Positions 12,821-29,595 of a stretch of 32,000 nucleotides of DNA are shown in pieces; the stretch's first letter is position 1; each line of letters opens with the position of its first letter. The position numbers were made by a program, and so were the translations under genes. This DNA comes from Candidatus Saccharimonadota bacterium. GTDB lineage: Bacteria > Patescibacteriota > Microgenomatia > UBA1406 > GWC2-37-13. The notes below the pieces were generated by a model that was given only the letters and a program-made list of their open reading frames with translations, searched no databases and had not been told where the DNA came from. The DNA is taken from contig CP065004.1 of the NCBI GenBank assembly GCA_016700135.1, forward strand, positions 840,001 to 872,000, read 5' to 3'.

Positions 12821-14041
12821 ATGAGGAAACTTCATCTAAACTACAATATTTACGGTGCCTTCTTTGTGTTGGTAATTATGGGCCTGACTGCAGTTACGTA
12901 CCTCACGACGGCCAGTAATCGGGAATCACATACCGTCCAATCACAGGCTGCCGGAACGTGCGGTGCGAACTGTGACAATAAAAGTGTGTGGATCAGTGAT
13001 TGTTTGCGATACAACGGCAGTGACAAAACGGCACAGTGCAATGACTGGTTCAATGCTGAGTGTTCAGCGTGTGGAAATTCCGTCCCTACCACGGCCCCGG
13101 ATACGGGGGGAGGCAATGATACTGGAGACAACACAGTACCGTTTGATCCAACTGCCACAGCAAATGATCCAGCCGTCCAAAATTTGTGCGGGGCAAATCC
13201 CAACGATCCGCGTTGCTGCAGAATCAATGAATGGAAAAATACCAATCTCGGAACAAACTTCAGAGAATGTTCGGGAGGAACAGGAGATAATAATACTCCG
13301 ACTGCCACACCGACAATTATGCCGGGAGGTACAGGAAGTTGTAACAACGGCCAAATACCGAACGGCAGCTGGGCTTGTTTTAGCCGAACCGAGGTGATTC
13401 AGTGTGTGAACGGTTCGTATCAAAATAAAACCAGCTGTACGAGTTGTACCGGTATCAGTGCAAATAAAAGCAGCATTTGTACAGGAGCGGGAAGCTCGCA
13501 ACCTACAAAAACACCATGCGAACAAAACAATCCATCGTATACTGTATGTCCTGCAGCTGGCAACAAATGTATCACCCGCGATGATTGTAACCAGCTTTCA
13601 AAAAATGCTCCTTCAAAAACACCATGCGATCAGGGTAATGCTTCTTACACTATTTGTGCCGTTGCTGGTAATAAATGTATTACCCGTGATGACTGTAATA
13701 CCTTAAGTAGGAATGCAGCTCTTTCTCCTACCCCGACAGTTGTCCAAACCGCAAACCCTGATGCATGCGGCCAGCCAGGAGCAAGCTGCTGCGGTACTGC
13801 TTTCGGAGGATCTGCCTGTGTGACAAACGGATATGAATGTATTGCAGGAAAGTGTCGGGTCGGATACGCGGGGTTTGATGACTCAAGTGTGACGCAAGTT
13901 CAGACTAAATTACTGGAGTGTACAACCGGTTCTTCCGGTGTCCAATGCACCAAGCCTGAAGTCATTACCGTCGATCAGGAGTTAATATTTAACGGATGCT
14001 TTGCGCTCCCCAATAATCAAGGCTTCATGTGCGCTGAATAA
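12821..14041 (+). CDS. Cys-rich secreted/anchored protein with an internal tandem repeat
   Basis: The start was moved to ATG 12821 (MRKLHLNYNIYGAFFVLVIMGLTAV... signal/anchor) because the upstream part of ORF 12704 overlies the riboswitch. Cysteines are numerous throughout. No family recognised. Confidence 0.7.
   Translation: MRKLHLNYNIYGAFFVLVIMGLTAVTYLTTASNRESHTVQSQAAGTCGANCDNKSVWISDCLRYNGSDKTAQCNDWFNAECSACGNSVPTTAPDTGGGNDTGDNTVPFDPTATANDPAVQNLCGANPNDPRCCRINEWKNTNLGTNFRECSGGTGDNNTPTATPTIMPGGTGSCNNGQIPNGSWACFSRTEVIQCVNGSYQNKTSCTSCTGISANKSSICTGAGSSQPTKTPCEQNNPSYTVCPAAGNKCITRDDCNQLSKNAPSKTPCDQGNASYTICAVAGNKCITRDDCNTLSRNAALSPTPTVVQTANPDACGQPGASCCGTAFGGSACVTNGYECIAGKCRVGYAGFDDSSVTQVQTKLLECTTGSSGVQCTKPEVITVDQELIFNGCFALPNNQGFMCAE
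13508..13717 (+). repeat. Tandem 108-bp (36-aa) coding repeat, two diverged copies
   Basis: KTPCEQNNPSYTVCPAAGNKCITRDDCNQLSKNAPS is followed by KTPCDQGNASYTICAVAGNKCITRDDCNTLSRNA. The TGC codons at 13517 and 13625 are 108 nt apart. Confidence 0.8.
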
Positions 14042-15250: not shown

Positions 15251-16621
15251 TCAGACCTGCGAAAGATATTGATCGACGTCAAACTTTCTTTTCAAACCGT
15301 TTGCATTCATATATCTGATTTTTCCGTAAATAGAGCGTTCAAACCATGGGCGATCATGGACACCTCCGATCGACCAGGCACAGCCGACATAGCCGTTGGG
15401 ATCTCTCCCGTCAAGCTCGTATTTGTCATTCAAATATACTGCTATTTCCATCGCCTCCTGTGCGGTCTTTGTCCATTCTAGAATTTTTTTTGCCCAGTAC
15501 ATCCGCATATAGCCGTGCATTTTCCCTTTATCGACCATTTCTATCTGTGCCTTATTCCATATCTCGTCATGGGTCTTGCCTTGTTCAAATTCTTTTAACG
15601 TATAGACGTATTCTCTTCTGTCCTTGAGATGTTCGTTCAAACTTTTTTTCGACCAATCCGGAAAGCCACGGTAAGAATCGTATTCTGAATTATAGTTGCA
15701 GTAATTATCCGCGAGCTCTCTTCTGATTATCAGTTCTTCTAAAAATGCTTCCTTGTCCTCATTCGGTGCAATTGATTGTTGTATATTCAGGGATATGTAC
15801 TGTGCTGAGATTTGGCCGAAATGAAGATACGGGGAGAGATTTGACTGTGCATTTAGATTCGGGTTATTGCTTTTTTCGCCGTATCCACGAAGACGCGTTT
15901 CGATAAATTCTTTCATCATATGTTTTGCGGCCTTTTCCCCGGGGTTGAGCCATGTGACAGCTTTTACTTCTCTGTTACACGAGAGCTTATTTGTAACGCC
16001 TTCCCATTCTGTATTGTGAAGCGATATCGAATGAGGTATGTTCTTTCCGACATTCGGAAATGCAGTGAGAAATTGTTTCAACTTTTTCTGAATTTTGGGA
16101 CGTATGGTACGTGCGGCAAACTCCTGTCTGGGAGAGGCTTCCCAAACGGGGACAATATTATGTGCATCAACTTCATAAAAAGGGATAGTCGTGTTTCGAG
16201 CAATGCTTGTTCTCCACTCCCTTCCAATTCTGAGGGGTGAAAAATCAGTCACTAATTCTTTTACATCATATCTGAATGTTAGTTTAGGAATTTCTTCTAT
16301 CGGATCACCGATTTGAAGGATAAACGGGATATAAAGTTTCTTCAGAGAGGTATCAATTTCTTTTAGTCCTTTGAGCATAAAATCATAATGTCTCAATGTT
16401 GCTCCGGGAAAATTCGGAGTAAGTACGAAGAAAACAACAAGAGGCAGATTGTTTTTCTTTGATAGTTCCTGCGCATACAGCAATGCCCAGTTCTCGGACA
16501 CACGCTGATCGCGACTCATCCAGTATGCGATCGCTGAGCCGCTGCTTGTGGTTTGGGTATTGAGCTTTCTGATTCTCTCTTTCTGAATCATATCTATATT
16601 ATAATGGGTTATTACATTCAT
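15251..16621 (-). CDS. phr: Class II CPD photolyase
   Basis: YWMSRDQRVSENWAL, GYMRMYWAKKILEW and DPNGYVGCAWSIGGVHDRPW are class II photolyase hallmarks. An alternative start lies at M11 (16591). Confidence 0.9.
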   Translation of the reverse strand: MNVITHYNIDMIQKERIRKLNTQTTSSGSAIAYWMSRDQRVSENWALLYAQELSKKNNLPLVVFFVLTPNFPGATLRHYDFMLKGLKEIDTSLKKLYIPFILQIGDPIEEIPKLTFRYDVKELVTDFSPLRIGREWRTSIARNTTIPFYEVDAHNIVPVWEASPRQEFAARTIRPKIQKKLKQFLTAFPNVGKNIPHSISLHNTEWEGVTNKLSCNREVKAVTWLNPGEKAAKHMMKEFIETRLRGYGEKSNNPNLNAQSNLSPYLHFGQISAQYISLNIQQSIAPNEDKEAFLEELIIRRELADNYCNYNSEYDSYRGFPDWSKKSLNEHLKDRREYVYTLKEFEQGKTHDEIWNKAQIEMVDKGKMHGYMRMYWAKKILEWTKTAQEAMEIAVYLNDKYELDGRDPNGYVGCAWSIGGVHDRPWFERSIYGKIRYMNANGLKRKFDVDQYLSQV

Positions 16622-16633
16622 TTTCTTAATGTT

Positions 16634-18102
16634 ATGCCCAAAAAAGTAATTATTATCGGTTCCGGTTTTGGTGGCTTGTCGAGTGCTGCGCTTCTTGCGA
16701 AAGCCGGATATGACGTCACCGTTCTTGAAAAAAATAAATCTCCTGGCGGTCGTGCTATGCAGTTTTCAGAAAAAGGATTCACTTTTGATATGGGACCATC
16801 ATGGTATATGATGCCTGAGGTGTTTGATCGATATTTTGCACATTTTGGCAAGACTCCGTCATCATTCTACAAGCTGGTTCACCTTGATCCTCATTATCGC
16901 ATCTTTTTTAGCAAAGATGATGTCCTCGATATGCTTCCAGATAAAGACAAAAACTTTGAAGCATTCGAAAAGATCGAGCCCGGTTCCGTTGAAAAATAAA
17001 ACAATATCTTGAAAAGAGTGAAGAACTGTATGAAATTGCGATGAAGTATTTTGTGTATAAAAATTATGATTCCGTGTTTGATATGTTTGATATGAAGTTT
17101 GCCGGTGTTGCCGCCAAAATGCCGGTGTTCTCTACAATGAATTCATATATTTCCAAGTACGTCACAGATGATAGACTTAAGAAAATTTTGCTCTATACGA
17201 CCGTATTTATCGGCGGTGTCCCTGACAATACTCCAGCTCTTTACACGTTAATGTCTCACATCGACTTCAATGTGGGTGTGTTTTATCCGATGGGTGGAAT
17301 GTACAGTATCGTTCAGGCACTTCAGGATGTGTGTAATGAGCAAAACGTGACGATAAAGCTCGGTACACCTGTTGAGAAGATCAACGTGAAAGCCGGAAAA
17401 GCAGTCTCTGTCACAGCAGGTGGGAAGGAATATGTAGCGGATATTATTCTATCAAATGCAGATATGCCTCATACGGAAATGGCGCTTCTTGATGAAAAAT
17501 ATCAGACTTACCCCAAAAAGTATTGGGAGAAAAAGACAATTGCCCCCTCTGCTTTTATTCTGTACTTAGGTGTAAAAGGAAAAATTAAAAACCTGAAACA
17601 CCATACCCTCTTTTTCACCTATGATTGGGAAAAACATTTTGCTGATATGTACAAAAAGCCGGAGTGGCCTGATGAACCTTCGATGTATATCTGTTGTCCT
17701 TCAAAAACAGATCCGTCTGTTGCACCGATTGGTGATGAGAATCTGTTTATTTTGGTACCGATTGCTCCGGGACTTTCTGACACTCCGGAAATTCGCAGAC
17801 GATATGAAGCGAAAATAATCGATATCTTGGAAGAGACGTTGGATGAATCCATTCAGGATAGATTGATCGTCAAAAAATCTCTCTCAATCAACGACTATAA
17901 ATCTCTCTACAATGCGTATCAGGGAACAGCCCTCGGAATTGCTCCGAACTTCTTTCAAACGGCTTTTTTCAGGCCGAATAATTTCAGTAAGAAGGTAAAA
18001 AATCTGTATTATGTCGGACAGGATACTGTGCCCGGTGTCGGTGTCCCAATGGCACTGATATCTGCTGAGTTAGCAGTTGAACGCATCACAAATGCCGAGT
18101 AA
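16634..18102 (+). pseudogene. crtI: Phytoene desaturase (CrtI family) interrupted by one frameshift at an A5 run
   Basis: MPKKVIIIGSGFGGLSSAALLAKAGYDVTVLEKNKSPGGRA is the FAD fold. Frame 1 ends ...EPGSVEK* at 16997-16999. The -1 frame continues KIKQYLEKSEELYEIAMKYFVYKNY... to ...YYVGQDTVPGVGVPMALISAE. One extra A in the run 16992-16996 would restore a single ORF of ~489 aa. Confidence 0.85.
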
Positions 18103-18902
18103 GCAGGAGATTTTTCGTCAAGGGAGCACAACATATTACTTTTCAAGCATCTTTTTTCCTCCCGATGTCCGAGAAAAAAGTCTTTACGCTCTACGCGTAT
18201 GTCCGTACAGCCGATGATTATGTGGATGCAGTTCCTCAGGATGCCGCAGGTTTTCATCGATTCAAACAAATGACGCTGGATGCTTTGGAGGGCAGAAAAG
18301 TTCCGGATGTTATTATCAGTGAGTTTATTGATTTGGCACGGAAAGAACAGATTAAAAGTGACTGGATTCTTGCTTTTCTCTCTGCTATGGAGCAGGACTT
18401 GACCGTGAAAACATACGAGACATATCAGGATCTTGAAAAATATATGTACGGCTCGGCAGAAGTTGTCGGTCTTGCAATGGCACGTATTCTCAACCTGCCG
18501 GAGAAATCGTTACAAGCCGCACAACTTCAAGGTAAGGCTATGCAGCTTATCAATTTTATAAGAGACATCCGGGAAGATCTTGTATTCGGAAGGGTTTATA
18601 TCCCGCAGGAAGATTTGCAAAAGTTTCATATTACAGAACTGAATGAACACGTTGATCCGGAACAGTTTTCAGCTCTTATTCGATTTGAGACAGAACGGTA
18701 CCTAAGCCTGCAAAAACAAGCTGAGAGCGGATATGCATACATACCCCGTCGGTATAGAATTCCTGTACAGACGGCCTCTGCTATGTATAATTGGACTGCA
18801 AGACAGATTATTCAAAACCCTATGATGATTTTTGAGAAAAAAATTAAACCTCATCCCTTACGAGTGATGAGTACCGTTATGAACTATTTAATAAAAGGAT
18901 GA
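18092..18902 (+). pseudogene. crtB: Phytoene synthase interrupted by one frameshift at an A6 run
   Basis: ATG 18092 overlaps the crtI stop and reads MPSKQEIFRQGSTTYYFSSIFFPPDVREK. The +1 frame (ORF 18165-18902) continues VFTLYAYVRTADDYVD...YMYGSAEVVGLAM...NFIRDIREDL. One A fewer in 18174-18179 restores the frame. Confidence 0.85.
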
Positions 18903-19951
18903 CATTGCAGGATTTTTACAAACAACACCAACCGAAACTGATTGAACATATCTACGAAAATCTTGACCAAACCTATAAAAATTATCCACTTCCTGTAGGA
19001 GCAAAAGGAATTCAAATGGTGCGAAAGTCAGTAGCACAGGGAAAAATGATTAGAGGAATGCTCGTTTTGATGAGCGCTCAGATGCACGGCGTTCAAATTA
19101 CGGATGAGCTCTACGATCTTGCAGCGGCGGTTGAAATTCTTCATACCGGATTTCTGATTCACGATGACATCATGGACAATGATTACAAAAGAAGAAATCA
19201 GGATTCAGTATATTATCAGTACATTAAAGAAGGAAAACGGCGAAAAGCAAATGATCCGGAGCATTACGGTATGTCAATGGCGATGTGTCTCGGAGATATG
19301 ATCTTCTTTCTCGTATTTGAGATTATTTCTAAAAAAATTAAGGATCCTGAGCTTGTGCAATGTATCATCGGATATATCAGCCAGGAAGTTCAGCATATTG
19401 GGCCTGCACAGATGATGGACGCAGCCTATGGGTTGATTACCAAAGATCCCAGTGCGACGGAAATTGACGAAATTTATACTTATAAAACTGCCCATTATAC
19501 ATTCTCACTCCCACTTATTCTCGGTGCTGTTTTTTCTTCATACGTGCGGTTGCCGCTTCTCAAAGATCTCGGATGCCAGATGGGAATTATTTTTCAACTC
19601 AGAGATGATGAACTCGGCATTTTCGGAACTACTAAAGAGATCGGTAAGCTGGTCGGGTCAGACATCCGGGAAAATAAAAAAACATTAATCCGCCATCTTT
19701 TGTGTAAGCGTGCCAATAAAGAGTCTCGGAAAAAATTGACCACAATTTTCGGAAATTCGGATATTTCTCAGGCTGATATTACTTTGGTCAGGAACATGAT
19801 ACACGAATATGGTGTTCTGAGCGAAATCAATAAACAGATACTCAAGCGCAAAAAAAAGATAGAATCTTATCTGGCTGAACTTTCTGAGGACGGGATAGAT
19901 GTCTCTCTGCTTGGTGAACTTCTGATATTTATTATTTCCCGAAAGAAATGA
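18899..19951 (+). CDS. Polyprenyl (geranylgeranyl) diphosphate synthase
   Basis: LIHDDIMDND (first Asp-rich motif) and FQLRDDELG (second motif). ATGA overlap with crtB. Confidence 0.85.
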   Translation: MTLQDFYKQHQPKLIEHIYENLDQTYKNYPLPVGAKGIQMVRKSVAQGKMIRGMLVLMSAQMHGVQITDELYDLAAAVEILHTGFLIHDDIMDNDYKRRNQDSVYYQYIKEGKRRKANDPEHYGMSMAMCLGDMIFFLVFEIISKKIKDPELVQCIIGYISQEVQHIGPAQMMDAAYGLITKDPSATEIDEIYTYKTAHYTFSLPLILGAVFSSYVRLPLLKDLGCQMGIIFQLRDDELGIFGTTKEIGKLVGSDIRENKKTLIRHLLCKRANKESRKKLTTIFGNSDISQADITLVRNMIHEYGVLSEINKQILKRKKKIESYLAELSEDGIDVSLLGELLIFIISRKK

Positions 19952-20766
19952 TAAAAACGATTCTCTTCATCTCCCGGCCCCGTTTTTGGATATATCTTCT
20001 CGGTCCGTTTCTTGTCGGGTTCGTAGCAGCTGCCGGTATTTCGGATGCAGTTGTATCACCCGTTTTTTGGTATGGTTTTTTCTTTTTCCTGTTGCCCGCA
20101 AACGTTTTCTTGTACGGAGTGAATGACTTTTTTGACGGTGATACAGACATACATAATGAGAAAAAGGGTATAAAAGAATCTTTGATGAGAGCTTCTGATA
20201 GAGCTTTTTACATGAGGGTATCTTTAATATCCTTTTTGTTTGCCTTGCCGTTTTTTTTGTTCCTGGATACTCAATCCACATTGCTGCTCGCAGTATTTTT
20301 TTTGCTTGCATTTTTTTACAGTGCTCCTCCGCTTCGATTAAAGGCGAAACCGTTTCTGGATTTTATCAGCAATATTTTGTACATACTTCCCGGAGTCATT
20401 ATTTACCAGCAAATTACTAAAGAAACGGTACCTCTTATACTGCTTATTGCAGCAGGATGTTGGGCAGGAGCGATGCATTTGTATTCTGCCATACCGGACA
20501 TTAAGGCAGACCGAAAAGCGGGATTAATTACAACTGCAGTTTTGCTGGAGAAAAAAAATAGTCTGGTTTTATGTATGATTTTATGGGGAGTAACAGCATT
20601 TATTGTGTCAGGAATATCACCGGTGCTGTCTTTAGCCTGGATATATCCTCTCATTGTTGCAGCCGTTTACGCAGGATATATGTCCCTTAAAAAAACGTAC
20701 TGGTATTTCCCCTGGATTAATTTGTTGTTAGGTTTTTTATTATTTATCTATGTCGCACTGGTATAA
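19948..20766 (+). CDS. UbiA-family prenyltransferase, lycopene-elongase-like (LyeJ/CrtEb-like) by context
   Basis: NDFFDGDTDIHN (NDxxDxxxD), ~8 TM helices, 272 aa. ATGA overlap with the upstream synthase. It sits between carotenoid genes. Confidence 0.7.
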   Translation: MIKTILFISRPRFWIYLLGPFLVGFVAAAGISDAVVSPVFWYGFFFFLLPANVFLYGVNDFFDGDTDIHNEKKGIKESLMRASDRAFYMRVSLISFLFALPFFLFLDTQSTLLLAVFFLLAFFYSAPPLRLKAKPFLDFISNILYILPGVIIYQQITKETVPLILLIAAGCWAGAMHLYSAIPDIKADRKAGLITTAVLLEKKNSLVLCMILWGVTAFIVSGISPVLSLAWIYPLIVAAVYAGYMSLKKTYWYFPWINLLLGFLLFIYVALV

Positions 20767-21481
20767 CTACACAGTTGTTGTGGTGATGCTTTTCTCATTG
20801 TTAGCATCGTTCTTTGTCAGCCGAATCGGAATTGATTCAGAGCTTTGGATTGTCTCATTGATTTTCATGTCTCTTTTCGCACTCCCATCCTTCATCTCAA
20901 TAGTTCGTCTCAATAGAAAGAGAGCCTTTCTGACACTTACTTCCTTAAGCGTTGCGAGCCTGACAATCGAATCGTTTGCCATCAAAACAGGGTTTCCGTA
21001 CGGAGCTTTTTACTATCAGGATAGTTTGGGCCCAAAAATCCTGGGTTTGGCACCGCTTGCGGTACCGCTTGGGTGGATTCCGCTTGTTCTCGGATCATAT
21101 GCCCTTGTCAGACGACTCAGAATACCGTTTACTTACGTAAATACTGCAGTGCTTCTCGTTTTACTTGATATGGTTATCGATCCGGGATCGTTTGCGCTGG
21201 GTATTTGGATCTGGCGAACACCGGGAGCGTTTTACGGCGTACCCTTGCAGAATTTTGTAGGATGGTTTTTTTCCGGTTTGATAGGAGCGTGGATTGCTCA
21301 CTTCTTTATTGGAAAAATTATTCAAAAAGCGCACTACTCAATGATAATCTTAAGTCTCGTCGGACCCGTGAGCTTCTGGACAGGGATTGCGTTTTTCAAG
21401 GCACTGTGGATCCCGGTAATGCTGGGCTGTTGCCTATTGTGGTTAATGTTTTTCTCAGTTAGAGTTCGAAGTCAGCAGTGA
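20750..21481 (+). CDS. Carotenoid biosynthesis membrane protein (DUF422/CruF-like 1,2-hydratase family)
   Basis: ESFAIKTGFPYGAFYY and DMVIDPGSFALGIWIW...GAFYGVPLQNFVGWF resemble the Caroten_synth/CruF family. 17-nt overlap with the upstream gene. Confidence 0.7.
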   Translation: MSHWYNYTVVVVMLFSLLASFFVSRIGIDSELWIVSLIFMSLFALPSFISIVRLNRKRAFLTLTSLSVASLTIESFAIKTGFPYGAFYYQDSLGPKILGLAPLAVPLGWIPLVLGSYALVRRLRIPFTYVNTAVLLVLLDMVIDPGSFALGIWIWRTPGAFYGVPLQNFVGWFFSGLIGAWIAHFFIGKIIQKAHYSMIILSLVGPVSFWTGIAFFKALWIPVMLGCCLLWLMFFSVRVRSQQ

Positions 21482-22265
21482 TTTTTTTGTTTGCCCGCTC
21501 TTTGATGTGAGCTTTGACTTCGATGTATTTTTCAATACCTGAGTTTTTAAGCTTGCTTCTCAAAAGCTGATCAGTTTGGAAAATACCTGCTGAGCTGTTC
21601 ATGTAGATATCAACCACAATCGGTCGTTCTTCCCCTTCACTGACAGTTACTTTATCAATTGCCATAGCTGATATCGAGTGGATTTCCATCCGCCCGGCCT
21701 CAAAAGGAAGTCGCGATCGTCCTTCACTCATATCCAGCGCGTCAGCGACGCGAAGAATTCCGCCTTCAATAGTTGATGGCTTTCCCCCGCTTCGGTGATT
21801 GATAATGGCATGCAAAGTTTCTGCGATGACAATTGTTTTTTCCTCAATCGGCAGGAAATCTATCAGTTCTCTCAGAAGGGTATGTGTCATGAAAAGACTG
21901 AACTCCTCGTGTCCTTCACGGTTTGCTGACATTCCGATATCGTGAAGCAAACTTGCCAACAGCACCACAAGTTCTGCGTGATCCCGGGTAAGTTTAAAAT
22001 CTTTGACGATGGAGGGCTCGATACCGTTTTTGGCAAGAATTCGAAGCAGTCGAAGCGACAGATTCGAAACGATCTGGAAATGAACCGGCCCGTGGTCAGT
22101 CATTTTCAGACGATCAATTGCGTTTGTGTTTATAATATTCCAGAGTGTGCGAATCTCAACATTGGTATTGACCATATCGAGTGCTTTTTCTAAAAGCTTA
22201 TTGTTTTTTGTCGGGACATGTATAGAAATACTGTCCGGCGACGGTTTTTGTGTTACCGTTTTCAT
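21459..22265 (-). CDS. HD-domain phosphohydrolase
   Basis: HGPVHFQIV ... LLHDIGMS (H...HD) motifs; 268 aa. Confidence 0.8.
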   Translation of the reverse strand: MKTVTQKPSPDSISIHVPTKNNKLLEKALDMVNTNVEIRTLWNIINTNAIDRLKMTDHGPVHFQIVSNLSLRLLRILAKNGIEPSIVKDFKLTRDHAELVVLLASLLHDIGMSANREGHEEFSLFMTHTLLRELIDFLPIEEKTIVIAETLHAIINHRSGGKPSTIEGGILRVADALDMSEGRSRLPFEAGRMEIHSISAMAIDKVTVSEGEERPIVVDIYMNSSAGIFQTDQLLRSKLKNSGIEKYIEVKAHIKERANKKITADFEL

Positions 22266-22518: not shown

Positions 22519-22815
22519 TTAATAGTTTCTTCTTTTGAAAGAACCGCGATCATTACTTCGTTCTTCGCGCGGTCTTGCAATAGTGACGACTATTTTTCGT
22601 CCGTCAATTTCTTTTTCATTCATTTCTTCAATAGCTCTTTGTGCTGATGCATCATCTGCGAATGTGACAAATCCGAAACCCTTTGATCGGTTGGTCTGTC
22701 TGTCCATGATAATGATAGCTTCAGAGATCTCTCCGAACTGTGAAAATAATTCGTTCAGTGACGAATCATTCATTGACCAAGGTAAATTCCCTACGTATAT
22801 TTTATTTTGCTGCAT
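22519..22815 (-). CDS. RRM-domain RNA-binding protein
   Basis: RNP2 IYVGNLPW and RNP1 KGFGFVTF, with a basic RG-type tail. Confidence 0.9.
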   Translation of the reverse strand: MQQNKIYVGNLPWSMNDSSLNELFSQFGEISEAIIIMDRQTNRSKGFGFVTFADDASAQRAIEEMNEKEIDGRKIVVTIARPREERSNDRGSFKRRNY

Positions 22816-22842: not shown

Positions 22843-23142
22843 TTAACGTCTATTTCTTCGTTGATAATGTGAAAAAAATGTATGACCTTTTCGGTCGACT
22901 GAATGGATTTCCGTAACTCTAATCCTGCTTCCGTTTACTAGTTTATTATTCAATGTTGCTATAGCGTCATTTGCAACCTTGTCTGATGTCATTGTAATAT
23001 ATGCCGTATCATTATTCTGTTTAAAACCGATTTTTCTATTCAGTTCAACAGAGACAACTTCACCTACGGTTGAAAAAAGTGTTTTGAGATTTTCTTCGGT
23101 TGTATCTGCTGAGATTCTTCCGACGTATACGATATTTGACAT
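22843..23142 (-). CDS. Divergent RRM-like RNA-binding protein
   Basis: VYVGRISADTTEENLKTLFSTVGEV resembles RNP2 and helix 1. The canonical RNP1 is absent (NDTAYITM). It lies in tandem with the RRM gene above. Confidence 0.6.
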   Translation of the reverse strand: MSNIVYVGRISADTTEENLKTLFSTVGEVVSVELNRKIGFKQNNDTAYITMTSDKVANDAIATLNNKLVNGSRIRVTEIHSVDRKGHTFFSHYQRRNRR

Positions 23143-23403
23143 GAATTAATGTTCTTCAGAGGAGAAATGGAAGTGCGAGAAATAATGTCTTTAGCTTACA
23201 AGTTCATCCAAGATAAGGATAGTATATCAGTTTGTTTGCCAAATAGCAAAAAAATAATCTTAAGAGCCGAATGTAAAGGCAAAATATGTAAAGTTGCCGT
23301 TAGATAATCTCTATGTCAAGCATCTTTCTATTTTCTTGTCAAATCCTTACTTATTCTGTACGAAAGGTTGACTATTGCTTCATTTTCTCACGATAAACTG
23401 TTA

Positions 23404-24121
23404 GGCTCTAGACTAGCACATTAACAATTTGTAATAGTTCATTGCAAAGGATCGATGGGGATTTGCTCCATCTCCATTCACCTCTTTCAAGTGTAATGGA
23501 AAGTTTTTCTTTACACCATTGAACTTAACGAGACGTCTTTACAAAAGGACCAGAATGACTCTATGCCATTGATATGGACCCCTTTGTATTTGAGAACTCA
23601 TTTTTCTTGTGATTGATTCTCAAATGTTTGTCATACCTGACATCAATACAAGTCCGTTGTATCCGCTCCACGAATCTGAATATACAGTACTGTTCAAGTT
23701 AATCTTTCCCTTCATAACAGCATGTAGCGTTCTTTTCTTTACAGTTTGGAATGATACGAGTAAATACACGTCCTTGACGCTCATATATCCTGGGGCCACT
23801 ACCTGCTTAAAATGACGTCCCACGACCTCTTTACTTGACTTGCCTCTCATCCTTCGAGGTCCAAGTATGATTCATCAATTTCTATCTCACCACCAACATA
23901 TCGTTGCATCTGGTGCACTTGGTGATGATATATGAGTTCGACGAATATTATTGTAATATTTGTTGACTGTATTGCGGTTGAGACCCAAAATACCAGAGGT
24001 CTGTGTAGCACTCAGATCGTGTACAAACACCATAGTATCTTTTTCTCTTGTATTTTGATATCGGCCTATTGTTACAAAACCATACCTCTAGTTTAGCACT
24101 ACTTTCTGCTAGTCTAGAGCC
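23404..24121 (-). mobile_element. Decayed copy of the IS1595-like element (transposase pseudogene)
   Basis: It is the reverse complement of 29608-30322 over its full length and keeps both 15-bp terminal inverted repeats (GGCTCTAGACTAGCA at 23404-23418; its complement at 24107-24121). About a dozen 1-2-nt indels break the transposase frame. ORFs 23609-23815 and 23620-23850 are fragments of it. Confidence 0.9.
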
Positions 24122-25078
24122 TTACTAATAATCCTAATGAGAAATTTCTCTCATGATTCTCTGTTCGCAAGCCAAACTGAAAATGATAATCGAGGCGTTA
24201 ATGTTAAACGGGGCTTACGCAATAAATGCCAGATAGAATTCGTCCAGGTGTTGCACCGATAGGCTATAGAAACGTCTTGAGAGCTAATAGATTTCAACCG
24301 TTGAACAAGACCCGAACGGGCACCAATAATCAAGAAAATATTTGAAAAAGTAGCCTATCAAGGATTCTCAGGACGAATGGTTAAAAAGTGGCTTGATGAT
24401 ATTGATTCACTACCAAGAGTGGATGCAAGATGCCTCTTAGCAAAGTCTATGTAGTACTGCAAACTCCTTTTATTATGGTGAATTTAAGTACGGTGAGAAT
24501 TGGTATAAAGGGACGTAAGAACCACTGATAACCAAGCGCTCTTGAAAGAGTGCAAATTCAACTTCAGGTTGCACCGAGACAGTGGAACAAACAGCTATTC
24601 CCATTCAAGAAAATCTGTATTCATGCGGCTCATGCGGTGAAGTGTCACCGCAGAAATAAAGTATCGAAGAACAAAAGCGAATAAAGTGAATAGCCATATT
24701 TATTACCATTGTAATAGGATTAAAAAGTATGATTGTCCTGAGCCATACATTACTGAGCAAGAATTAATAAACCAATTAATCGGACATCTACCAAAAATAC
24801 GACTTAACACTTCATATTTACTGCAAGAATTCGATGTCGAGGTTAAAAGGCTACAGCATTTAAAAGCAGCAGTAATTGACGGATATACACCAAGAGCTGA
24901 ATTAACACCACATAACAACGGACAGATTGAATTAAAATATGACGAATCAAAAACAGAGATGCTTAAAGAATATTTGCTTCATGTCCTTCAATACGGCACA
25001 CCTGAAGAACGAGTCAAAATATTAAAAGGCGTTAACTCCAGATTTATCCTCGCAGACCGCCAACTTTCACTCCAGTAG
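24122..25078 (+). pseudogene. Large serine recombinase, C-terminal two-thirds (frameshifted); continuation of 30323-30692
   Basis: It reads out of the IS end as TNNPNEKFL.. LMILCSQAKL.. NVKRGLRNK.. RPGVAPIGYRN.. IIKKIFEKVAYQGFSGRMVKKWLDD.. in shifting frames. The intact tail is NSHIYYHCNRIKKYDCPEPYITEQELINQL... (ORF 24686-25078), a zinc-ribbon/coiled-coil region. Confidence 0.75.
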
Positions 25079-25325
25079 TTTTCTTCAATTGCTAACCCTT
25101 ACCAGAATGACAAGATTCGAACGGAAAAAAGTAGTTTTTGTGCTGTTCTGAGCGTTTTTGCTAAAAAGCTTAGAACCGAGTGCATTTCCCTTATAGGTAT
25201 TTTCGGCGATTTTCACCTCTCTAGGATATGTTTGGAGTATTCAATAATTGCAGGCTCTTTTTAGCAAGTAACATCAAGCTAATCGAGCATAGGAGTTAGG
25301 TCTTGAAGCAACTCAAGGCTCTATG

Positions 25326-25411
25326 CGGAGGAGGCGGGATTCGAACCCGCGAGTCCATTGCTGGACGCAGACTTTCCAGGTCTGTGGAATAAACCGCTAT
25401 CCGACTCCTCC
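25326..25411 (-). tRNA. tRNA-Ser (anticodon GGA)
   Basis: GGAGGAGTCGGATAGCGGTTTATTCCACAGACCTGGAAAGTCTGCGTCCAGCAATGGACTCGCGGGTTCGAATCCCGCCTCCTCCG. It has a 7-bp acceptor stem, the CAGAC/GTCTG anticodon stem with loop CTGGAAA, a long variable arm (GTCCA-GCAA-TGGAC) and the GCGGG/CCCGC T stem. No CCA is encoded. Confidence 0.9.
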
Positions 25412-25575: not shown

Positions 25576-26151
25576 ATGGAACAAGATTTATTGACGCCGC
25601 TAAAAAATTTTTACCGTAAAAACAGGCGTTTGCCGTCATACTCGGAAATGCTCAAAATATTCAATGTTGCTTCCAAAAGAACTATCTATGAATATGTCCA
25701 GCAGCTTATTGACGAAGGGTTTATCAAACGGGTAAATAAAAAACTTTCACCGACAAAACGTTTTTTCGCTTTGCCGGTCCTCGGTATGATTCAGGCGGGA
25801 TTTCCGATTCTTGCACAACAAAGCAGAAGCTACCTCACGCTTGATGAATATTTTATTGAGAAACCTGATAATTCTTTTTTACTTAAAGTACACGGTGATT
25901 CGATGATCAATGCCGGGATATTTGAAGGAGATCTCGTCGTAATCGAGCAGAAAGGCGATTTCCGGGCAGGAGATATCGTACTTGCCGAAATTGACAATGA
26001 GTGGACCTTAAAGATTCTGAAAAAAGAAAAAGGGAAAACATTTCTCGAAGCTGCCAATCCGATGTATCCGCCTTTTTATCCGAAACGGGAATTGAAGATC
26101 CATGGAATAGTACGGGCCGTTATGAGAAAACTTGGCGGGATGGCTAACTAA
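25576..26151 (+). CDS. lexA: LexA repressor (S24 peptidase)
   Basis: N-terminal winged-helix domain. GDSMINAGI carries the catalytic Ser and EWTLKILKK the Lys region. Confidence 0.9.
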   Translation: MEQDLLTPLKNFYRKNRRLPSYSEMLKIFNVASKRTIYEYVQQLIDEGFIKRVNKKLSPTKRFFALPVLGMIQAGFPILAQQSRSYLTLDEYFIEKPDNSFLLKVHGDSMINAGIFEGDLVVIEQKGDFRAGDIVLAEIDNEWTLKILKKEKGKTFLEAANPMYPPFYPKRELKIHGIVRAVMRKLGGMAN

Positions 26152-26164
26152 AGAACAGAACTGA

Positions 26165-26193
26165 TTGACAACCTTCTTATAGTTCTATATACT
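26165..26193 (+). promoter_or_regulatory. Near-consensus promoter TTGACA-N17-TATACT abutting the start codon (leaderless-type)
   Basis: TTGACA at 26165-26170 and TATACT at 26188-26193. ATGs at 26197 and 26203 lie 4 and 10 nt after the -10 box. Confidence 0.5.
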
Positions 26194-26196
26194 GAA

Positions 26197-27930
26197 ATGC
26201 ATATGGAACTATTGGGTTTCCTCAGTATTATTCTGTCTCTTGTTGCTCTTTTTAAGGTCAACAGCCTCAGTAAAAAAATCGATTCTCTTACAAATCCTGT
26301 TACATCTCCATCTCAAGCTGAAACACAAGTATCCGCTACACAGAAAGCGCCTCAGGTTTCAACACAAAGTATTCAAAAACCTACAAGAACTCTTCCTGTT
26401 ACTGAAAAAGGACCGGTTGAAAAGTTTTTTGCCTGGTATGCCCATGAATGGCCTCTCAAGACAGGAGCATTTTTCATTCTTCTGGGATTTTTGTGGCTTG
26501 TGACTTATGCCTTCCTCAACAACTGGATCGGGCCTGCAGGGCGGATCACATTCGGGATAATTGCCGGAGCACTGGTACTGCTTTTCGGTGAAAGACGAAT
26601 GCAGAAATTCAAAACCCAGGGAATCACTCTCATCGGACTTGGAGCCGGTATCGTGATTATCACCACATATGCCGCTCAGGAAGTGTACCAAATGTTCCCG
26701 CCGCAGCTGGCACTGACTTTTATGGTACTTACAATGATATATACATCCTTTGTCAGCTTGAGGTATAAGGTACTGTCGCTGGCAGTTTTCAGTCTTTGTA
26801 TCGGTGGAATTGCACCGCTTCTCATCGGTTCCGAAGAAAAAAGCATCGTAGGTCTTTACGGATATCTGCTTGCCGTGGTCATAAGTAATATATGGATTGC
26901 AAGATACGGTAAATGGAAAATCCTGTCATTCCTTTCTGTTGTCCTTATATCACTCTACAGCGTAACCTTTTTTATATCATCTGCAGAAACTCTGAAAACG
27001 ACATTATCTCCGAAAGAATTTCTTGAGATCAGCTTTTTTGCCGTCACATTCTGCAGTCTCTTTTATTTTTCAACCCTTGCATCGATCATTACATCACGCA
27101 AAGCAACTACAATCGACCTCCAGACTGCAGCACTTGTCGGATTTTTTAGTCTTGCATGGATAAATGCACTGACCATGCCGGTTTATAAAAGCGTAGTGGT
27201 CCTGATTGCCACTTTTGCTTATGCAGGCGGCGCGTATATGGTATATCTCCGGACGAAGATCCCTTCGGCTGTGCAGGTGTATACGGTTGTCTCAATGATT
27301 TTACTTGCCGTTGCAACAGCATTTGAATTTGACGGCCCTGCATTGACCATTGCATTTTCTATTGAAGCCCTCATCCTCCCGATCATCTCAAGTCGCCTCC
27401 TTGGTACAACCATGACCAAGTACATGCTGCTGTATCATATCCTGCCGATCGCTCTGGGAATCAACGCCCTTGCCGGTCTAAGCGATATGCACTTTGCCCG
27501 GGAATTTACCATCCTGCTTTTTGTCACGCTTTCTACATTCCTGTCCGGGTGCTATTTTTATTATGCTGACGGAAAAGAAGACCACGATCTTCACAGCGCT
27601 TCAATACTGCTTGTAATTGTAGGTGCAGTTTACGGACTGCTTTTGATCTGGAGGACTACAAGTGAAATCATTCCTATCACGTATTTTGCCCGAGCCGTAG
27701 CGCTGGTCCTTTATACCGTTATCGGACTTTCGAGTTATGTTGTTGCAGGTTTGCAGGATCGTCCCGTACTGAAAAAATTCGGTTTAGGCCTCCTAATTGC
27801 CGTAATTGGAAGACTCTTAGTTGTTGAGATATGGAGCATGGAACTGACCGGACGAATTATTACATTTTTCCTCATCGGACTCCTATTTATCGGATCCGTA
27901 TTGATGGGCAAAACGAAAAAAACAGCATGA
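26197..27930 (+). CDS. Large polytopic membrane protein (DUF2339-like)
   Basis: 577 aa. An N-terminal TM helix is followed by a polar linker and more than 15 TM helices (FFAWYAHEWPLKTGAFFILLGFLWLVTYAF...). The start may be ATG 26203 if the mRNA is leaderless. Confidence 0.75.
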   Translation: MHMELLGFLSIILSLVALFKVNSLSKKIDSLTNPVTSPSQAETQVSATQKAPQVSTQSIQKPTRTLPVTEKGPVEKFFAWYAHEWPLKTGAFFILLGFLWLVTYAFLNNWIGPAGRITFGIIAGALVLLFGERRMQKFKTQGITLIGLGAGIVIITTYAAQEVYQMFPPQLALTFMVLTMIYTSFVSLRYKVLSLAVFSLCIGGIAPLLIGSEEKSIVGLYGYLLAVVISNIWIARYGKWKILSFLSVVLISLYSVTFFISSAETLKTTLSPKEFLEISFFAVTFCSLFYFSTLASIITSRKATTIDLQTAALVGFFSLAWINALTMPVYKSVVVLIATFAYAGGAYMVYLRTKIPSAVQVYTVVSMILLAVATAFEFDGPALTIAFSIEALILPIISSRLLGTTMTKYMLLYHILPIALGINALAGLSDMHFAREFTILLFVTLSTFLSGCYFYYADGKEDHDLHSASILLVIVGAVYGLLLIWRTTSEIIPITYFARAVALVLYTVIGLSSYVVAGLQDRPVLKKFGLGLLIAVIGRLLVVEIWSMELTGRIITFFLIGLLFIGSVLMGKTKKTA

Positions 27931-29153
27931 AAGCATTTTTAAACCCTATAACAACTTCACTTTTCACAATACTGCTTCTCGCTGCCGGAGCAATACATGC
28001 ACAATCCGGATATGAATACACGAGCCCTACACCAAGTGTTGATAGTGTCATTTCGAATTTTCAGTTTATTCAAAATGTTGCACCGAGGGATGAACCTCTG
28101 CCGGTACCTATAGAGATGCCAGTCTCGACAAATCGTCTTTCGGATTATGTGGTTGTAGATACCGGAACCAATACCTTGCAGCCCCGTACCATTGTGACAA
28201 GATCGGAAAATATTCCCGTTACCGTTACAGTTTACAGTTCCACCTCAAGTGCGTCACTGCTCCATGACGGAGAGACATCCACATTTGAGACATATCAGAT
28301 TGATCAAAACCCGGCGGTAACCGGAGCCTCCGTATTTGTCTCTTTGCATTACACCTACGAAAAACCCATCCAAACGAGTAACCTGGTCACGGTTCTTGAC
28401 CGGAATGTGGTCATGCCTCAACGCATTAGTATTCAGTCAAGAAACGGACAAAACGACAACTGGGAATTTATCACTAATAATGCATCGATGAGCAGTACTG
28501 TTTACTTTCCGCAAACTACGGCACGTGAGTTTCTCGTAACTCTTACATACAATCAGCCGCTCCGTATCGCTGAAATGAATTTTGTGCAAAACCCGACGGC
28601 AGAATCGTATTATCTGAGATTTGTAGCAAGACCAAAGACAGCTTATGCAGTGTACAGTATGCCTGAAGGGAATGTTCCTTATATTCCTTATCTGGACAAT
28701 CTGAATCTGACATCCACCACTCTGGAGACGGTCGCATTCAACTCCACCCGTTTACCGAATCCGAAATATGTCCCTCCGGACACTGATAAAGACGGCATTA
28801 TTGACAGCCGGGACAACTGCATCAGCGTTGCAAATGCCGACCAGGCTGACTTGAATAAAAATAATCAGGGGGATGCCTGCGAAGACTCAGATCTGGACGG
28901 CGTCATCAACGCTAATGATAACTGTCCCGATATGCCGAATCCCAATCAGCAGGACGAAGACAGTGACGGAAAAGGGGACCACTGTGACGGAGTAGAGAGC
29001 AGATGGGTAGAACAGCTGTCATTTCTTCCGTGGATCGGTATCGGAGTCGGTTTCATCGTTGTTCTGGCACTTTTCAAGTTTTCACTTTCGAAACAAACTC
29101 CAGAAGAAGCCTCTGAAGTAATGCCACAAAATAAGGAAGACACTAATAAATAA
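27927..29153 (+). CDS. Secreted protein with thrombospondin type-3 Ca-binding repeats and a C-terminal TM anchor
   Basis: ATG 27927 overlaps the upstream stop (ATGA). The signal peptide is MKAFLNPITTSLFTILLLAAGAIHAQS. Repeats are DTDKDGIIDSRDNC, DSDLDGVINANDNCP and DEDSDGKGDHCD. The C-terminal helix is FLPWIGIGVGFIVVLALF. Confidence 0.75.
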   Translation: MKAFLNPITTSLFTILLLAAGAIHAQSGYEYTSPTPSVDSVISNFQFIQNVAPRDEPLPVPIEMPVSTNRLSDYVVVDTGTNTLQPRTIVTRSENIPVTVTVYSSTSSASLLHDGETSTFETYQIDQNPAVTGASVFVSLHYTYEKPIQTSNLVTVLDRNVVMPQRISIQSRNGQNDNWEFITNNASMSSTVYFPQTTAREFLVTLTYNQPLRIAEMNFVQNPTAESYYLRFVARPKTAYAVYSMPEGNVPYIPYLDNLNLTSTTLETVAFNSTRLPNPKYVPPDTDKDGIIDSRDNCISVANADQADLNKNNQGDACEDSDLDGVINANDNCPDMPNPNQQDEDSDGKGDHCDGVESRWVEQLSFLPWIGIGVGFIVVLALFKFSLSKQTPEEASEVMPQNKEDTNK

Positions 29154-29595
29154 CGACTTTCGTTCCTATCGGTGCCCATTCATAAAGCCAGTCGGCTTCA
29201 GCAAGCGATACATTCACGCAACCGTTGCTCATGGGTGTACCGAAGTTGTTGTGCCAATAGGCTCCGTGGATCGCATACCCTTTATAAAAATACATAACAT
29301 CCGTCACTCCGGGATGATCATAGTATCCGTTTACTGAAGAATAGCCCCGCATCCTCTGCACAGGAAGTTTCCAGTAGGTTTTGTATGTACTCTTAACGGT
29401 GGGGGTTTGTGAAAGTCCCGTGGAAACAGGAGTACTCCTCACTATTTTGCCGTCCTCCCAGGCATAGAGCATCTGGTTGGAAGTGTCAACCGTAATCAGC
29501 TTTTCTGTAGTAATAATCTCTTCAGCATGTATGCCAGCAAAGGAAACAAAAAGAAACATGGTGAAAGTAACCAGAACAATTCTGATGTATCTCAT
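29143..29595 (-). CDS. L,D-transpeptidase (YkuD domain)
   Basis: Signal peptide, then ...YAIHGAYWHNNFGTPMSNGCVNV (the HG...S.GC catalytic motif). Its start codon lies 12 nt from the IS end at 29608. Confidence 0.85.
   Translation of the reverse strand: MRYIRIVLVTFTMFLFVSFAGIHAEEIITTEKLITVDTSNQMLYAWEDGKIVRSTPVSTGLSQTPTVKSTYKTYWKLPVQRMRGYSSVNGYYDHPGVTDVMYFYKGYAIHGAYWHNNFGTPMSNGCVNVSLAEADWLYEWAPIGTKVVIY

Follow-up and report, generated by a model that had tools for sequence, protein, structure and literature searches.

A lineage-conserved carotenoid operon beside a class II photolyase gene in Candidatus Roizmanbacteria, with a likely bacterioruberin-type C50 product

Introduction

Bacterioruberin-making Actinobacteria, Arthrobacter agilis and A. 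bussei, reportedly carry lyeJ- and cruF-type genes backed by experimental pigment data, and their pigment is said to serve membrane fluidity at low temperature. These are free-living hosts with large genomes, unlike the host considered here, and we liken them to it by description, not by sequence. For carotenoids of the CPR, we know of no chemistry. In the haloarchaea Haloarcula japonica and Halobacterium salinarum, crtD (C0507), lyeJ and cruF form a cluster, crtB lies separately, and a bifunctional enzyme of the CrtI/CrtD type serves as the desaturase (PMC11946383); a Halobellus locus (L005) represents this cluster in our comparisons. The lyeJ, crtD and cruF genes were reported in Patescibacteria in 2023, from Lake Baikal, with a proposed role for C50 carotenoids in small-cell membranes, although the genes were scattered, with cruF at a distance from lyeJ/crtD or the genes split between reads (PMC9948471).

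Here we describe a carotenoid locus in a stretch of 32,000 nucleotides (the window) from a Candidatus Roizmanbacteria (Patescibacteria/CPR) MAG, a streamlined, tiny-genome bacterium whose source record is one single contig of 1,448,136 bp (~1.45 Mb). We consider it likely that the locus is a lineage-conserved five-gene operon which, when intact, directs synthesis of a bacterioruberin-type C50 carotenoid, and that the frameshifts present in two of its genes are most likely consensus errors.

Results and Discussion

Organization of the locus

The features of the locus are as follows.

15251..16591, minus strand: phr, class II CPD photolyase, 446 aa (456 aa from an alternative upstream ATG at 16621)
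16592..16633, no strand: divergent control region, 42 nt, with an invariant palindrome, ATTATAAT, at 16598-16605
16634..18102, plus strand: crtI, bifunctional phytoene desaturase/3,4-desaturase (CrtID, C0507) type, interrupted
18092..18902, plus strand: crtB, phytoene-synthase-type SQS_PSY, interrupted
18899..19951, plus strand: short-chain trans-polyprenyl diphosphate synthase (PF00348, 169 bits)
19948..20766, plus strand: lyeJ-type UbiA prenyltransferase, lycopene elongase/1,2-hydratase family (NF009516, 280.3 bits)
20750..21481, plus strand: cruF-type carotenoid hydratase, Caroten_synth family (PF04240, 159.4 bits; alternative start 20825)
21459..22265, minus strand: HD-domain protein (PF01966, 31 bits), convergent with cruF, 23-nt overlap

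The five carotenoid genes lie in the listed order on the strand opposite phr, with successive overlaps of 11, 4, 4 and 17 nt. The crtB ATG at 18092 precedes the crtI stop (18100-18102), the crtB/synthase and synthase/lyeJ junctions are ATGA (at 18899 and 19948), and the lyeJ/cruF overlap spans 20750-20766; the overlapping genes may be translationally coupled. These coordinates and junctions agree with the first-pass annotation, which had described a photolyase divergent from five carotenoid genes chained by start/stop overlaps in an apparently streamlined bacterium, but two of the five frames, crtI and crtB, are interrupted. Its report of no rhodopsin, cyclase or light-responsive regulator in the window was also borne out, as a search of the remaining window returned no rhodopsin, cyclase or CarH/LitR-type regulator.

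The window and the haloarchaeal cluster share the desaturase, LyeJ and CruF families in the same order and an overlap of lyeJ with cruF. They differ in the position of crtB, which haloarchaea carry in divergent orientation, and of the synthase gene, which haloarchaea have at another site; the window places both genes after the desaturase and before lyeJ, and one operon thereby spans the route from GGPP to the end product. Identities to the haloarchaeal proteins are only 33-48%, CruF is 60 residues shorter (243 vs 302 aa), and the window operon has a CPR host and is paired with a photolyase gene, while the haloarchaeal cluster is tied to opsin regulation. The Lake Baikal Patescibacteria (PMC9948471) share the phylum-level host group and three gene families, but in the window five genes overlap in one operon, the only desaturase is of the CrtI/D type and a photolyase gene lies divergently alongside. 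Two operons of DPANN archaea (Woesearchaeota; L007 and L030) have the identical crtI-crtB-polyprenyl synthase-lyeJ-cruF order with tight spacing, and their desaturase also passes the CrtID model (726 bits); they differ in their archaeal hosts, in sequence (31-50% identity) and in having no adjoining photolyase or HD gene.

Enzyme families and proposed pathway

HMM searches upheld the family calls made earlier, namely class II photolyase, SQS_PSY, polyprenyl_synt, UbiA and Caroten_synth (PF04240). After frame repair, the 489-aa CrtI scored 668.7 bits against NF058655 (cut-off 640) and 503 bits against TIGR02734, placing it by model match in the bifunctional CrtI/CrtD type, a point that the first reading had missed. 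Because the protein matches a bifunctional phytoene/3,4-desaturase model, the lack of a separate crtD in the operon is accounted for, and the five genes would therefore make up a complete pathway. Repaired CrtB (269 aa; PF00494, 182 bits) carries the motifs DDYVD and DIRED and reached no NCBIfam equivalog cut-off. The polyprenyl diphosphate synthase, presumed to be a GGPP synthase in the CrtE role, scored 116-121 bits with GGPPS/IdsA models, under their cut-offs; its first Asp-rich motif is DDIMDND, and its second, DDELG, is conserved across the CPR and DPANN copies of the operon.

The UbiA-family protein, identical to QQS43399.1 and bearing the motifs NDFFDGDTD and DIKAD, exceeded the NF009516 cut-off of 205 bits, the next models (119 and 105 bits) both falling under theirs, and it shares 43-44% identity with LyeJ homologs of haloarchaea, P0104 from a crtD-lyeJ-cruF cluster among them. 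Several homologs are named '4-hydroxybenzoate polyprenyltransferase' by JGI, as might be expected were the gene a quinone or ether-lipid prenyltransferase merely sitting beside carotenoid genes. That reading is hardly credible, since MenA, UbiA, chlorophyll-synthase and related models gave at most 36 bits vs 280 for the LyeJ type, the gene is probably translationally linked between the polyprenyl synthase and cruF, and in 80 related loci it is nearly always beside crtI and/or crtB. The 243-aa CruF-type protein (identical to QQS43400.1) belongs to the Caroten_synth family, its nearest match being the archaeal CruF model; it scored 145.2 bits with TIGR03460, slightly below the cut-off of 154.7, 107.7 with NF041333 (cut-off 300) and 69.9 with the cyanobacterial-type model NF045693. 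The suggestion of the first-pass annotation that the UbiA and CruF genes correspond to LyeJ-CruF of the bacterioruberin pathway thus stands. On the same models, Halobellus scored higher than the window: 779.3 vs 668.7 for CrtID, 450.5 vs 280.3 for LyeJ and 219.4 vs 145.2 for CruF (TIGR03460). Since CruF, CrtB and the synthase fall under NCBIfam equivalog cut-offs, the hydratase specificity of CruF, the C40 versus other chain length and the product length of the synthase are assigned from context only.

As read from these family assignments, the polyprenyl-PP synthase would make GGPP from IPP and DMAPP, and CrtB would join two GGPP into phytoene. The single CrtI/CrtD-type desaturase would convert phytoene to lycopene and later add the 3,4 double bonds, LyeJ would attach a C5 unit at each end and hydrate C-1,2, and CruF would hydrate both added C5 units, giving the predicted C50 end product. 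The genes for IPP/DMAPP supply lie outside the window.

It is also conceivable, although we think it unlikely, that specificities of CPR LyeJ and CruF have diverged and that the operon yields a C45 or non-hydrated C50 intermediate or a C40 hydroxy-carotenoid. The CruF scores below both equivalog cut-offs and the modest identity of LyeJ to the haloarchaeal enzymes are consistent with this, and many CPR clusters have no nearby cruF or have a glycosyltransferase instead (e.g. L006), indicating that end products clearly vary within the family. Against it, none of the three pathway-specific enzymes is missing, CrtEb-like, cyanobacterial CruF and CrtD-only models match them less well than the models of the bacterioruberin pathway do, and the lyeJ/cruF overlap is as in haloarchaea, which favors a bacterioruberin-type product.

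Interrupted reading frames

The first reading treated crtI and crtB largely as ordinary genes; the families were right, but both genes are frame-broken, which it had hinted at only by speaking of a 'frame-repaired operon'. crtI is split into ORFs 16634..16999 and 17041..18102: nucleotide alignments show that the run at 16992-16996 is A5 with one A missing, the best-matching relatives being one base longer, and a premature TAA follows at 16997-16999. crtB is split into ORFs 18092..18217 and 18165..18902 by a 1-nt insertion in the alignments, the run at 18174-18179 being A6 with one A too many, and the ATG frame ends prematurely at 18215-18217. Both genes are intact in five related contigs, and in L001, L002, L003 and L008 they encode 489 and 269 aa.

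These frameshifts are probably residual homopolymer errors of a long-read consensus. They are the sole frame-changing indels relative to L008 across 16634-22265, and both fall in A-runs. Elsewhere in the window, an otherwise well-conserved gene at 661-2025 carries seven frameshifts, and an IS1595 copy differs from its twin by ~15 small indels, mostly homopolymer, vs ~6 substitutions, a ratio usual for consensus error but not for decay. With homopolymer error the most likely explanation, the operon is probably functional in the organism itself.

A genuine recent loss of carotenoid synthesis, by poly-A slippage in crtI and crtB at an early stage of decay in an IS-active genome, strikes us as a less probable but serious alternative. 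Both lesions affect two adjacent first-committed genes while ~15 neighboring syntenic genes are intact, and frameshifted homopolymer runs numbered 2 of 27 in crtI and crtB vs 0 of ~111 in the other genes checked (p ~0.04 if random). The window also contains copies of IS1595, a segment flanked by IS elements that is inverted with respect to the relatives, and the other multiply frameshifted gene; for CrtI the NCBI annotation has just a fragment of 353 aa, and for the crtB ORF at 18165 it has no matching protein; and phr is already gone in the nearest relative, suggesting that the locus is evolutionarily labile. However, purifying selection on frame-corrected crtI and crtB is strong, and the branch leading to the window shows no excess divergence. 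The synthase, lyeJ and cruF genes downstream remain intact, and each lesion changes the length of a homopolymer by one base, as the most frequent type of long-read error does; the ~2:1 indel-to-substitution ratio of the broken IS copy is also rare in natural decay. That ribosomes or RNA polymerase slip on the A-runs in the living cell and so bypass real frameshifts is highly improbable: tRNA-Lys on AAA could re-pair in the needed frame (-1 at GAA AAA/TAA, +1 at GAA AAA A), but efficient slippage usually takes longer runs than 5-6 A, and the genes are in one frame in all five relatives, indicating that there is no conserved recoding signal.

Conservation and origin

The locus occupies the same neighborhood in at least six related contigs, with LyeJ identity falling from 82% to 49%; L010 and L017 are among the loci with this gene order. 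Between the window and L008, dN/dS was 0.064 for crtI, 0.112 for crtB and 0.056, 0.137 and 0.160 for the remaining three genes, with no acceleration in the window lineage; purifying selection thus acts on the whole set of five. GC content is 0.40-0.42 inside the locus and 0.38-0.48 outside. Given the conserved synteny, the dN/dS values of 0.06-0.16 and a GC content matching the flanks, we conclude that the operon is ancestral, and the first-pass suggestion of recent acquisition was not borne out. The LyeJ tree does interleave CPR, DPANN and other phyla, pointing to horizontal transfer at deep levels, and IS elements lie 2-8 kb away. Nevertheless, recent acquisition of the locus as a photoprotection island is very doubtful. 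The flanks (EamA, Cys-rich protein, HAD, HD and two RRM proteins) keep their synteny in L001, L002 and L008, the downstream flank in L003 as well; GC inside is like that outside; and the crt genes have diverged in step with their flanks. The HD-domain gene adjoins cruF in L001-L004, L008, L010 and L017, and its product is 93-99% identical to that of relatives (dN/dS 0.014); it is a constant positional neighbor of the operon in the clade.

LyeJ-type clusters are not an isolated case. A survey of GTDB species genomes confirmed LyeJ relatives in at least 584 stretches, with CPR and DPANN well represented, and, with the Patescibacteria genes already published (PMC9948471), the earlier judgment that such genes would be unusual in a streamlined bacterium was overstated. 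The gene kit is known from many related ultra-small microbes, and the find is solid but ordinary.

The photolyase gene and the divergent control region

The phr product matches TIGR00591 (phr2) with 630.6 bits (cut-off 550), covering model positions 2-452 of 453, and also PF00875. The start at 16591 is favored, as relatives align from residue 1 there and the NCBI protein QQS43396.1 has 446 aa; the gap to the crtI ATG (16634) is then 42 nt, or 12 nt from the start at 16621. A generic promoter scan did not list ATTATAAT, because no matching -35 was found. TATAAT is readable on both strands of the palindrome, which could serve as a -10 box for both the operon and phr, and TATTATAATG is identical in all four sequences aligned (the window and three relatives).

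The first-pass interpretation of the locus is partly supported. A photolyase beside the operon is not obligatory, as the closest relative has deleted phr and kept the crt genes. Association of photolyase and crt genes recurs in CPR genomes in three different gene arrangements, which supports a light-related association. The host may lead a pigmented, light-exposed life, as was proposed, but the Lake Baikal CPR bearing lyeJ, crtD and cruF genes live at 1600 m depth (PMC9948471).

Gene layout of the carotenoid locus

The layout described in the first-pass annotation, a photolyase gene (phr) divergent from five genes chained by start/stop overlaps, was reproduced by ORF listing and translation:

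15251-16591, minus strand: phr, class II photolyase (alternative ATG at 16621)
16634 (ATG) to 18102 (stop), plus strand: crtI, frame interrupted
18092 (ATG) to 18902 (stop), plus strand: crtB, frame interrupted
18899-19951, plus strand: polyprenyl-PP synthase gene
19948-20766, plus strand: UbiA-family, lyeJ-type gene
20750-21481, plus strand: PF04240, cruF-type gene

The locus as first presented is real, and the operon arrangement and its junctions stood, but the reading frames of two of the five genes, crtI and crtB, are broken. The junction overlaps are, in order, 11 nt, ATGA, ATGA and 17 nt, and the five-gene unit spans 4.85 kb. Position 16591 is the phr start both in relatives and in the NCBI annotation, so the gap between phr and crtI is 42 nt.

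Several neighbors of the locus deserve mention. An HD-domain gene (21459-22265, minus strand) shares 23 nt with the 3' end of cruF, is always beside cruF in this clade, and exceeds all other genes of the neighborhood in conservation (99% amino acid identity to L008, the contig of the closest relative; dN/dS 0.014). Two tandem RRM-type RNA-binding proteins of 98 and 99 aa (22519-22815 and 22843-23142, minus strand) are conserved in every relative, where they directly follow the locus. On the upstream side, 12821-14041 (plus strand) encodes a Cys-, Thr- and Asn-rich protein of about 400 aa with an N-terminal membrane segment and internal repeats (...CITRDDCN..., twice), which had no Pfam match and is 61-75% conserved in the relatives.

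A predicted bacterioruberin-type pathway

The proposal that the UbiA and CruF-like proteins form a LyeJ-CruF pair was borne out. The UbiA-family protein scored 280.3 bits on the NCBIfam HMM for LyeJ (NF009516/PRK12875; cut-off 205), a model on which the canonical LyeJ of Halobellus scored 450.5 bits. The next-best models, NF010119 (119.3 bits) and NF009608 (105.1 bits), remained under their own cut-offs, and the MenA, UbiA and ChlG models gave at most 36 bits. The LyeJ-type model thus won over the quinone and chlorophyll types, and this competition among models led us to reject a quinone or ether-lipid prenyltransferase identity. The protein carries the Asp-rich motifs of the UbiA superfamily (NDFFDGDTD at residue 59 and DIKAD at residue 184), and N59, D60, D63, D67, D184 and D188 were invariant among 18 homologs. 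The gene shares its operon with crtI as well as its 17-nt overlap with cruF, and association with cruF and CrtI/CrtD recurred in most of the best 80 related loci. These results support membership in the LyeJ-type lycopene elongase/hydratase family, with C5-prenylation and 1,2-hydration of lycopene as the predicted activities. In PDB sequence searches, the AfUbiA prenyltransferase 4tq3 was the only solved LyeJ-like relative (E = 3.7e-07), and CruF returned no solved relative.

The 243-aa cruF product belongs to the CruF/Caroten_synth family, as had been suggested, matching PF04240 with 159.4 bits (cut-off 25) over model positions 7-207 of 209. It scored below the equivalog cut-offs of TIGR03460, the archaeal CruF model (145.2 vs 154.7 bits), and of NF041333 (107.7 vs 300 bits); the CruF of a Woesearchaeota operon was likewise under the cut-off, at 131 bits. 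The window protein is nearer to TIGR03460 than to the cyanobacterial-type CruF model, gamma-carotene 1'-hydroxylase, on which it scored only 69.9 bits. When CrtI was compared with CrtI and CrtD models after a one-base change in an A-run was undone, the repaired 489-aa protein scored 668.7 bits on NF058655, the bifunctional phytoene desaturase/3,4-desaturase (CrtID) model, exceeding its cut-off of 640; the intact L008 ortholog scored 669.8 bits and the Halobellus enzyme 779.3 bits. Both CrtI and CrtD activities have been shown for the C0507-type desaturase of the haloarchaeal cluster (PMC11946383), so the window would need no separate crtD.

The remaining two enzymes are less specifically assigned. 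CrtB, repaired in the same way, matched SQS_PSY (PF00494) with 182.4 bits and has the Asp-rich motifs DDYVD and DIRED. It scored below the equivalog cut-offs (best CrtB model 98 vs 550 bits; HpnD 132 vs 278.6 bits), of which the CrtB cut-off would separate CrtB from squalene, dehydrosqualene and HpnD synthases, and operon context is the basis for naming it a phytoene synthase. The polyprenyl synthase (PF00348, 169 bits) gave 116-121 bits on GGPPS/IdsA models with cut-offs of 468-500, and is presumed from its operon context to make GGPP. Its second Asp-rich motif is DDELG instead of DDxxD (residues 235-240); DDELG or DDE[LI]G occurs in nearly all of the CPR/DPANN operon synthases (L001-L087), DDILD being found only in L028. 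Finally, the phr product is a class II CPD photolyase, as first annotated, with a full-length match to TIGR00591 phr2 (630.6 bits, cut-off 550.05, model positions 2-452 of 453).

When intact, the five genes would cover all steps from IPP/DMAPP to a bacterioruberin-type C50 carotenoid, with GGPP supplied by the synthase, phytoene by CrtB, and both desaturations by a single CrtI/D. The LyeJ-CruF reading can therefore be sharpened to a full bacterioruberin-type pathway of five genes, in which CrtI/D is bifunctional, a prediction supported by the sequence comparisons.

Conserved neighborhood and ancestry of the operon

Four window proteins have identical counterparts in an NCBI record titled 'MAG: Candidatus Roizmanbacteria bacterium' (a contig of 1,448,136 bp): the LyeJ-like protein (QQS43399), CruF (QQS43400), the synthase (QQS43398) and the phr product (QQS43396). 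The same neighborhood holds the operon in L008 (LyeJ identity 82%; 86% nucleotide) and in the next closest contigs, L001, L002 and L003 (62-66%), with shared flanks upstream (EamA, a Cys-rich protein, a small ORF and a HAD phosphatase) and downstream (the HD protein and two RRM proteins). The order phr(-)/crtI-crtB-synthase-lyeJ-cruF/HD(-) is kept even in the more distant L010 and L017, at about 50% LyeJ identity. The GC content of the operon is that of its flanks. Values of dN/dS between the window and L008 were 0.064 for crtI, 0.112 for crtB, 0.056 for the synthase, 0.137 for lyeJ and 0.160 for cruF, and the window branch was not longer than the L008 branch when measured against L001. The conserved neighborhood, flank-like GC and low dN/dS indicate that selection acts on the operon, which is ancestral to the clade and not newly imported. 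The recent acquisition suggested in the first-pass annotation is contradicted by synteny, GC and purifying selection, and recent horizontal transfer of the locus was rejected on these grounds.

Beyond the shared flanks, a block at 25576-29595 (LexA, DUF2339, a TSP_3 protein and YkuD), lying between two IS1595 copies, is inverted relative to L001, L002, L003 and L008, and a DsbD/thioredoxin gene present in those four is absent from the window at the inverted block. Beside the window's only tRNA gene, tRNA-Ser(GGA) (25325-25411, minus strand), is an orphan ORF of 130 aa (24686-25078, plus strand) for which Pfam gave no hit. This 2.4-kb gene-poor stretch, which also contains a broken IS copy, may be the remnant of an integrated element.

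Frameshifts in crtI and crtB

The crtI frame shifts at the A-run 16992-16996 and meets a premature TAA at 16997-16999, leaving GSGFGG, the FAD-binding GxGxxG motif, in a 121-aa N-terminal piece and the remainder in a separate frame. In crtB, the shift is at the A-run 18174-18179, and the ATG frame stops at 18215. Adding one A to the crtI run gives 489 aa and removing one A from the crtB run gives 269 aa, exactly as in four related contigs where both orthologs are intact, and nucleotide alignments have a single-base gap at each site. These frameshifts are probably consensus artefacts, because both lesions are single-base changes in homopolymer length, because the corrected genes show no relaxed selection and the downstream genes are intact, and because the signature of consensus error occurs elsewhere in the window.

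For example, the heavy-metal-associated (HMA)/DsbD_2-like/cupredoxin gene at 661-2025 (plus strand), upstream of a Cu-ATPase (2047-4443), required seven frame corrections (at about 896, 1009, 1071, 1214, 1305, 1424 and 1477), after which its alignment to the intact 465-aa homolog P0122 ran the full length with zero in-frame stops; this gene is either a local consensus-error patch or a young pseudogene. Of two inverted IS1595-family copies, one (29644-30318, plus strand; 224 aa, PF12762) is intact and the other (23400-24030, minus strand) is broken, differing from it by about 15 indels of one or two bases, most of which lie in short homopolymers, and by about six substitutions. That the MAG contig is a single piece of 1.45 Mb implies the use of long reads, and the QQS accessions and IPM65 locus tag suggest that the record may belong to a Danish activated-sludge Nanopore+Illumina MAG set. 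The pipeline of that set has been described (PMC8012365).

A genuine, recent inactivation of crtI and crtB would account for the clustering of the lesions, which affect 2 of the 27 homopolymer runs in the two genes vs none of about 111 in the other genes compared with relatives, and would suit an IS-active, rearranged genome; however, selection on the frame-corrected genes is not relaxed, and we regard this explanation as unlikely. Bypass of the frameshifts by slippage (programmed frameshifting) is very improbable, as all orthologs of both genes are in frame and give it no support. Exact-protein look-ups with LyeJ, phr and CruF found no independent contigs of the same strain on record, and JGI metagenome contigs gave zero matches in two scans with patterns that spanned the frameshift sites and accepted both lengths of each A-run. 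A practical lesson for genome scanning is that the record carries local clusters of homopolymer indels, and that apparent pseudogenes in it need read-level confirmation.

The photolyase link and the divergent spacer

Within the 42-nt spacer, TATTATAATG is identical in all four aligned genomes. The core, ATTATAAT (16598-16605), is palindromic, so that TATAAT appears whichever strand is read, and it precedes the crtI ATG by about 30 nt and the phr ATG by about 7 nt. It is plausible that this core acts as a shared, overlapping -10 box for both genes, and that the phr transcript is leaderless, although we infer this only from the sequence. A generic sigma-70/terminator scan gave 12 promoter-like hits vs 17.2 in shuffles, and nothing usable in the spacer.

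The phr gene is found beside crt genes in three arrangements: divergent in the window clade, co-directional as phr-crtB-lyeJ (L029 3-2937 and L041 3777-6795), and downstream of lyeJ (L062 6001-8844). Three different arrangements argue for a functional association, and those in the Patescibacteria L029, L041 and L062 suggest that the pairing arose repeatedly. L008 has lost about 1.15 kb of phr (L008 3315-3355 vs window 15402-16553), of which both ends remain, and its five carotenoid genes are intact, which speaks against a strict dependence of the operon on phr. A search of gene content found no rhodopsin, cyclase or CarH/LitR-type regulator within the window, in agreement with the first reading.

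Distribution and significance

Such a gene set was at first considered unusual for an apparently streamlined bacterium. This view is not supported by a LyeJ scan of one genome per GTDB species, in which at least 600 stretches matched and at least 584 relatives were confirmed, or by published lyeJ, crtD and cruF genes from Lake Baikal Patescibacteria, reported without clustering (PMC9948471). Saccharimonas MAGs, too, have been reported to contain carotenoid genes (PMC11484240). The best 80 of the at least 584 relatives include Roizman-, Davies-, Magasanik-, Levyi- and Gracilibacteria, unnamed Patescibacteria, DPANN (Woesearchaeota, Micrarchaeota and Nanosalina), Asgard archaea, Armatimonadota, Chloroflexota and Halobacteria. 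Gene-order profiling of these 80 gave crtI-crtB-(synthase)-lyeJ as the commonest CPR order, with cruF downstream, upstream or missing. Halobacteria and Asgard archaea have crtI-lyeJ-cruF with crtB on the opposite strand, and the Halobellus locus has the textbook haloarchaeal crtD-lyeJ-cruF with a divergent crtB, its three proteins scoring 779, 450 and 448/219 bits on the models applied to the window proteins. Two Woesearchaeota loci, L007 (2669-7564) and L030, have the same five-gene order as the CPR operon at 31-50% identity, which could reflect an old cross-domain transfer or mis-binning. In a neighbor-joining distance tree of 85 LyeJ homologs, which is unrooted in style, without support values and descriptive only, the window LyeJ falls inside a CPR-dominated bush apart from Halobacteria, with DPANN interleaved. 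The locus is a well-organized instance of a gene set already known and widespread.

Ultra-small episymbionts such as CPR and DPANN are otherwise thought to scavenge lipids. It is possible, if somewhat doubtful, that they share a self-sufficient five-gene operon (CrtI/D, CrtB, DDELG synthase, LyeJ and CruF) with which they would themselves produce a bacterioruberin-type C50 carotenoid for their membranes, and that in Roizmanbacteria a single palindromic -10 element controls both this operon and a class II photolyase. A functional operon would be one of the few pathways in CPR bacteria that encode the whole synthesis of a membrane component, and would bear on how such small cells, dependent on a host, construct and protect their envelopes, through rigidity, cold tolerance, or antioxidant or UV protection. 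The self-contained 4.85-kb unit is a handy cassette for heterologous bacterioruberin production, and a direct test of whether one CrtI/D suffices for both desaturation roles outside haloarchaea. Above all, the locus offers a clean case in which to test C50 carotenoid synthesis in CPR, together with a warning about the indel clusters of this assembly.

Contig titles among the relatives require caution. Among low-GC contigs, many with the title 'uncultured Gammaproteobacteria' carry the wrong label (L009 and L003 are one contig, as are L013 and L006), and the titles 'uncultured Gammaproteobacteria', 'Limisphaerales' and 'Gammaproteobacteria bacterium' on L009/L003, L013/L006, L010 and L017 are unreliable. 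All of these are low-GC contigs with Roizmanbacteria- or Woesebacteria-type synteny, and the L006/L013 protein is named Woesebacteria by NCBI.
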